64,000 nucleotides of DNA, from assembly GCA_964016885.1 (NCBI GenBank), contig CAXHJY010001232.1, forward strand, positions 113,704-177,703, in the 5' to 3' direction. Under the pieces are notes generated by a model. That model searched no databases. It saw only the letters and a program-made list of their open reading frames with translations, and had not been told where the DNA came from. This DNA comes from Eledone cirrhosa. Taxonomy: Eukaryota. This document shows, piece by piece, positions 33,470 to 34,030 of the stretch. The position numbers and the translations under genes were made by a program. Every line of letters begins with the position of its first letter. Position 1 is the first letter of the stretch.

Positions 33470-34030
33470 ATTGTCATAACATTCACTATAAAGACTACAG
33501 AATAGTTTTCCAAATAAGGGCGCAAAAATGTAATGAAAACTTGTTCACGTGACAGCCAAATTTCATTTATAACCAACCAAAAAAAAGACTTCGTGAGCCT
33601 CCTTTTTTCAAGTAAAAAGAAATTCAAACACTCATATATGAAAAAACAACCTGTGACAAACACCGCCACCCCCCTCTCTTATTTAAAGAACTATTGTAAC
33701 GCGAACTGGCGCGAAATTTATTATAATTATTGACAAACCAATCAAATTACTTCTCGAAAAACCTGGCATTTCGAGCCACTTTTTCCATATAAAACAAGTA
33801 ACATTCAGAAACCAATCAGATGTGAGAAAAACCACAGACCCTCCATCTCAACTCACCTTTTGAAAAGCAGAAGAACTGCGAAACCGGTAAAGGAACCAAA
33901 TAAATATATATATTTAAAAAAAAAAATACACTCCAGTTGCATTTTCGATTTCATCTCTTTTTCTTTATACTTTCACTCGTGTAGGACACCTCGGTTATTT
34001 TTCATTTTGTAAAAAAACCTCACTTTCTAA
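33470..34030 (+). mobile_element. ORF-less HHR-bearing element
   Basis: Homologous to 14692-15280. Ends at (TA)n. Confidence 0.7.
33856..33893 (+). ncRNA. Minimal hammerhead, U3:A8 variant with all stems intact
   Basis: cctt TTGAAAA gcag-aagaa-ctgc GAAAC cg GTA aagg. Confidence 0.78.

Follow-up and report, generated by a model that had tools for sequence, protein, structure and literature searches.

U3-A8 hammerhead motifs in the end repeats of putative Neptune-like PLEs of Eledone cirrhosa

We analysed a 64,000-nt stretch of the Eledone cirrhosa genome (the window) and found a minimal type I hammerhead motif at 33856–33893 on the (+) strand, in which the C3-G8 pair of the core consensus is replaced by U3-A8. 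The motif lies in the end repeat of a PLE family (family A) and recurs in related families of the same genome. The change from C3-G8 to U3-A8 likely took place once in the ancestor of families A–E, and the new core would have been kept by selection on master elements. The hammerheads of these families likely self-cleave slowly, as dimers formed through an ACCGGT palindrome, and we regard slow dimer cleavage, probably protein-assisted, as the probable selected function of the motif. The U3-A8 state is itself an already published variant, natural cases having been reported in 2011 and cases in PLE hammerheads in 2014.

At 33856, stem I pairs CCTT with AAGG (33856–59/33890–93, 4 bp) and leads into the core TTGAAAA, with U3 at 33860 and A8 at 33865. 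Stem II follows as GCAG-AAGAA-CTGC (33867–70/33876–79, 4 bp), G12 is at 33880 within GAAA, the palindrome ACCGGT spans 33883–88, and the predicted cut is 3′ of A17 (33889). The type I core consensus (C3 U4 G5 A6 N7 G8 A9...G12 A13 A14 A15.1/U16.1 H17) is present throughout save for U3-A8. There are three helices with the end of stem I open, as in type I, and stems I and II co-vary from one family to another; stem III has 2 bp and is invariant, and is therefore uninformative in the monomer. The palindromic 15.1-16.1 pair within ACCGGT and the position in a PLE end repeat are those of minimal PLE hammerheads. The preliminary description of this DNA had called all stems perfect, which is true of the 33856 copy but does not hold as a family rule: in about half of family A, stem I is 3 bp plus a mismatch (the variant at 33855/33856 makes up 54% of depth in run X1, on contigs of unknown type), in family B the third stem I pair is a C-U mismatch, and stem I has just 2–3 contiguous pairs in families B, C and D.

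The 38-nt monomer was no stabler than its shuffles (folding energy z = −0.94), and with so unremarkable a folding energy the case for the motif rests on its core, its co-variation and its position. Rfam returned no hammerhead, and hence no Hammerhead_1 assignment, at 33780–33960 with E ≤ 10, whereas a canonical neighbour of the motif was picked up by Hammerhead_1 at E = 0.029 (18.9 bits, against a gathering score of 34), as anticipated for a variant that canonical CUGANGA searches would miss. That even the canonical neighbour falls below the gathering score indicates that the Rfam model is weak for these minimal forms. In the whole-window Rfam scan, no hammerhead appeared among the 150 matches listed of 371, and those listed were microsatellite-driven miRNA matches.

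We searched the window with the pattern TTGANAAN{10,24}GMAACCGGT and obtained seven matches, compared with 0 in 100 shuffles, and these are the seven U3-A8 sites previously described. Two of them, at 3351(−) and 3683(+), had been credited with GAAAC but read GCAA-CCGGT, A13 being changed to C. The site at 14816(−), whose stem I contains an A-G mismatch and stem II a U-C mismatch, is 77% identical over 384 nt to the 33856 copy and 80% to the family A tail. It represents an older copy of the family of 33856, which leaves no more than three families (A, B and D) for the seven sites. The motifs and their carriers in the window are:

3223..3839, no strand assigned: family D palindromic stub with U3-A8 + A13C (GCAA) cores at 3355–3384 (−) and 3686–3715 (+)
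5704..6163, (−): family B 3′ end repeat (pLTR) in the same sense as the ORF, with its U3-A8 core at 5815–5851
7075..9312, (−): family B RT + GIY-YIG frame, uninterrupted, 5′-truncated (745/777 codons, without ORF1)
9996..10455, (+): family B pLTR, inverted 5′ copy, core at 10308–10344
14714..15014, (−): older family A copy, core at 14821–14849 (TTGAGAA), stems I and II partly broken
22106..22538, (+): family B solo pLTR, core at 22391–22427
33458..34029, (+): family A Neptune-like PLE 3′ stub, 5′-truncated, 572 nt, amid TA repeats and without a remaining ORF; matches the tail of the ORF-bearing locus L092 at 95.3% over 575 nt
33856..33893, (+): minimal type I hammerhead motif, family A, by sequence pattern and family-level pairing

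As a truncated stub, the 33856 copy is probably inert, and the element whose tail it matches (95%) carries a 775-codon RT + GIY-YIG frame. The family B frame at 7075–9312, earlier described as an intact ORF, indeed has no stop, but it is truncated at its 5′ end relative to full copies and lacks the upstream ORF1. The proteins of these elements have an RVT_1 domain followed by a C-terminal GIY-YIG, and the elements have direct or inverted end repeats, as expected of endonuclease-positive PLEs. A CX2-5CxxC linker joins RT to endonuclease in families A, B and D, and TA repeats flank the copies inspected; this linker, common to Neptune and Nematis, and a (TA)n insertion bias are the features by which PMC8557442 describes Neptune. 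Placed by linker and TA flanks, the host elements would be Neptune-like PLEs. At 18 of 20 family A loci the core follows the ORF in sense, 1.0–1.4 kb on its 3′ side, and the same arrangement holds in 29 of the 30 family B loci fetched, the remaining one being cut by the contig end. The family B ORF is represented by 60 scored copies at 98–100% identity. Non-LTR retrozymes are non-coding tandem repeats of 170–400 nt with one hammerhead each, and we rejected this identity because the copies here derive from the tails of coding elements, truncated or inverted.

We then counted the four combinations of positions 3 and 8 in the 3.0 Gb genome. With a pattern ending in N{10,24}GAAACCGGT, which covers one stem III type only, U3A8 gave 23,474 matches (control 57), C3A8 201, U3G8 192 and C3G8 118 (control 157). 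The excess of U3A8 that had been predicted as a mark of selection is present, but it reflects amplification and cannot show selection, since copies inherit the core of their master. The mismatched C3A8 and U3G8 cores amount to 0.86% and 0.82% of U3A8 and mostly have U3A8-family stems. We checked 100 family A copies identified solely by their flanks, and 10 were changed at one of 11 invariant core positions (counted by eye), or ~1.0% per site, and the mismatched cores are decay of inserted copies at this rate of about 1%. Three of the 100 C3G8 matches listed had a U3A8-family stem (~1.7 would be expected genome-wide from two independent changes), and 68 of the 100 belong, by eye, to a separate canonical family, F. 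For a canonical family with another stem III, one pattern gave 2,654 matches, and 98 of the 100 listed were C3-G8. Family A has at least 11,689 copies with both exact flanks, and families C and E came to light in a search for cores with a base other than A at position 7 (3,415 matches). In total, descriptors of the CUGANGA/GAAA kind miss at least 36,000 motifs in this genome (~23,500 + 10,200 + 2,400). An apparent C3-A8 family was discarded as a chance match inside a long repeat, without stem I.

That single mismatches are about as frequent as the per-site decay of copies, in an AT-rich genome (33.7% GC in the window), is also what would be seen if U3-A8 had spread neutrally, one master having drifted through a mismatch under AT-biased mutation and copy number reflecting amplification only. 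Such a history does not account for a core conserved across families whose flanks cannot be aligned, nor for double changes that recur while no single-mismatch family was seen to have amplified; as an account of the whole core it is already largely refuted, and we consider it very improbable. Over ~420 nt of tail in six U3-A8 families, the core was the sole shared block, and the proteins of families A, B, C and D are 51–66% identical. In an alignment of nine family or subfamily representatives, 87.8% of cells were paired and 7 of 10 pairs showed double changes, including the stem I pair adjoining the core (U-A in seven, A-U in two). None of 500 shuffles matched the paired fraction or the covariation score, and slid controls reached 33–39%; the shuffle ignores relatedness, the representatives were hand-picked, and U3-A8 never varies in the alignment. 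Positions U4, G5, A6, A9, G12, A14, A15.1 and U16.1 were invariant in all nine, family D included.

We also scanned 97 loci of relatives from other organisms. A core stood beside the ORF in sense in 35, linkage being judged by adjacency, and the 3:8 pair was Watson-Crick in 35 of 35 (27 C-G, 6 U-A, 1 A-U and 1 G-C). The four mismatched rows among the 97 loci lay inside an ORF or antisense. The A3-U8 and G3-C8 cores were seen at one locus each (L263:1969 and L268:117), and all four Watson-Crick 3:8 pairs occur naturally.

In a quick IQ-TREE phylogeny, families A–E formed one clade (SH-aLRT 99) nested among C3-G8 elements, with L223, which has C3-G8 and the same ACCGGT, as sister (support 92, partial sequence). 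The tree omits L230, L242, L243, L244, L270 and L306 (core in the ORF, antisense or far upstream, or on the same contig), L216 and L281 (whose sole matches were mismatched and misplaced) and loci without a core. Its starred branches require at least five changes of the U-A label. A second origin within this genome is family H, with 2,483 matches, of which the 100 listed comprise 97 U3-A8, 3 C3-A8 and no G8; it sits in a distant PLE clade next to the C3-G8 family G. A single origin of U3-A8 for the six own-genome families (A–E and H) was rejected (p-AU 6e-8), and these separate origins mark U3-A8 as a recurrent compensatory state. The proposal of a selected variant lineage is accordingly supported at family level, by the shared core, the co-varying stems and the nesting, but not as one lineage. 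Within A–E, the family D end repeat is 75% like that of A (3352–3477 versus 33770–33891), yet the D protein is nearest C and E (66% to C, 56% to A), a pattern that may point to an end-repeat swap between PLE families.

How might such a motif work? Dimers would form between tandem end repeats, cleavage 3′ of N17 would trim read-through transcripts, and the element's own protein would help. Small PLE-associated hammerhead variants that cleave as dimers are reportedly, by its title, the subject of a 2017 study by Lunse, Weinberg and Breaker. Co-folding of two family A copies predicted a double-hammerhead pairing through ACCGGT; for families B and D, the lowest-energy predicted dimers were without a full double hammerhead. 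In the predicted fold U3 pairs with A17, which is the rule in families A, C, D, E and H (B has C17), and because U3 can pair in this way, activity in these five is predicted to be lower than with C3-G8; a trapped C3-G17 state described in PMC3884650 is analogous. Low activity is also predicted by a pairwise mutational scan done on a single type III hammerhead, where G3-C8 was the one swap to rescue and all other doubles in that region were low (PMC9901934). Minimal PLE hammerheads are reported as inactive monomers and weakly active dimers (PMC4209133), and an anole PLE hammerhead as cutting only with the element's protein, its dead mutants still inserting in vitro (PMC11167929).

For family D, the pattern for the 3351/3683 core gave 10,473 matches genome-wide (control 0), with GCAA in 98 of the 100 listed, and U3-A8 + A13C was found in 29 of 30 fetched ORF loci. 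With 69 scored ORF copies at 97–100% identity, many with an open 784-codon frame, D is apparently a young, autonomous element family. The A13C change departs from the type I core consensus. No other hammerhead core was found in the four family D loci scanned, and an alternative register using the GAAA inside stem II gave, by inspection, no U16.1 or stem II. D nests with the GAAA-bearing C and E, so that C13 is derived, and C13 was found in none of the 35 elements scored in other organisms. In tandem D copies, the core lies ~200 nt before ORF1. The prevalence of A13C among the ORF loci indicates that success does not depend on a complete canonical core, and cleavage in D may be weak or dispensable.

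Either the D motif is non-cutting and the family's success is independent of cleavage, or A8 relaxes the requirement for A13. In a sheared pair like G8-A13, C may be able to replace A opposite A. It is conceivable, if doubtful, that the U3-A8 swap opened a new hammerhead sequence space in which, without G8-A13, A13 could change to C, and that D runs on an active U3/A8/C13 core; if true, such a core is allowed by no descriptor examined. G8-A13 is given as a pair of the ground-state core in PMC6257768, and A13 belongs to the consensus core used to reject hits in PMC3088659. If D is instead non-cutting, it would be a natural case of an autonomous PLE that succeeds with the hammerhead fold but without catalysis, and so be relevant to the role of PLE hammerheads in general.

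An alternative reading is that the motif is kept in this clade for a non-catalytic job, for instance as a fold for dimerisation or protein binding by which end repeats are paired or the RT is positioned, with negligible cleavage and with U3-A8 and A13C as steps of catalytic decay tolerated by the fold. It draws on the abundance of family D, with GCAA near-fixed among the matches listed and 784-aa frames at 97–99% identity, on the U3-A17 trap possible in five families, on hammerhead activity being dispensable in vitro (PMC11167929), and on Naiad PLEs, described as proliferating without canonical hammerheads (PMC8557442). A fold freed from catalysis is harder to reconcile with eight core positions, U4 to U16.1, that stay invariant in all nine representatives, D among them, and with a 3:8 pair that is Watson-Crick in every scored element, as selection on an active fold would have it. 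We consider a purely non-catalytic role unlikely and favour slow dimer cleavage.

The closest known system is the Cercyon PLEs of Schistosoma mansoni, for which Cervera and de la Pena (2014, PMC4209133) built a U3-A8 descriptor with ~1,300 hits; the UUGAAAA core is listed in their supplement. Those hammerheads share with the present ones a minimal type I form in end repeats, U3-A8 (UUGAAAA, UUGAUAA), a palindromic stem III, a short stem I and thousands of dispersed or inverted copies. As far as the Cercyon motifs are described there, the families here differ in their Neptune-like clade, a 6-nt ACCGGT in place of a 2-bp palindrome, mostly no bulge before stem II, ~20-fold more copies and one A13C family. 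Perreault et al. (2011, PMC3088659) reported natural U3-A8 variants with the same 3:8 co-variation, stating U3-A8 to be active in vitro with citation of Przybilski and Hammann 2007; the variants are not placed in a PLE context in the parts of that paper covered, and the motifs here are without evident tertiary loop contacts. The anole Poseidon element PAc (PMC11167929) likewise has a PLE end-repeat hammerhead and is a model for protein-assisted cleavage, with a G3-C8 swap that partly rescues; it differs in having canonical C3-G8 and a hammerhead that overlaps the ORF start, unlike the family D core upstream of ORF1. A13C did not appear in the published literature searched, an incomplete search with several key hammerhead papers outside its reach and with a Cervera supplement whose alignment text is without the GAAA columns, so that A13 is not readable there; within those bounds, the A13C family D is the sole part of this work not found in print. 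One genome here amounts to a natural experiment: its young sister families bear U3-A8 with A17 or C17 and U3-A8 + A13C, U3-A8 also arose independently next to a C3-G8 sister, and among relatives elsewhere each of the four Watson-Crick 3:8 pairs occurs. This set bears directly on whether PLE hammerheads must cut.

Several further features were seen. In families A, B and D, an upstream ORF1 overlaps the RT ORF in the −1 frame (L043:1387–1471, L101:688–775, L186:1216–1282, L164:1454–2818). It is ~420–435 aa in B and D, with no Pfam match for that of D, and a TTTTTTA heptamer lies in frameshift phase in 21/21 (B), 7/7 (A) and 20/20 (D) full-length RT frames. A programmed −1 frameshift is the likely explanation of the overlap, with a splice acceptor as the alternative; ORF1 and a frameshift are indicated for some PLEs in the Fig. 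1 legend of PMC8557442. Family F (L031–L039) has C3-G8 with the same ACCGGT, a stem II that pairs poorly and a bulge of 2 nt preceding C3, and no ORF was found at the loci examined. Several bacterial genome bins (L295–L311) include eukaryotic PLE contigs bearing hammerheads, likely host-DNA contamination. Other C3 hammerhead-like cores in the window are at 34425 (+), 32051 (+), 28797 (−), 1997 (+), and 48625 and 49163 (−); the one at 34425, CTGATAA, differs by a single mutation (C3-A8) from a large family in which 98 of the 100 matches listed are C3-G8 and which is linked to another PLE clade. Long LINE-type endonuclease/RT frames lie at 22687–28139, 54366–57596, 49364–52690 and 61076–62724, three of them near-identical (97–99%), among very long TA-type microsatellites.
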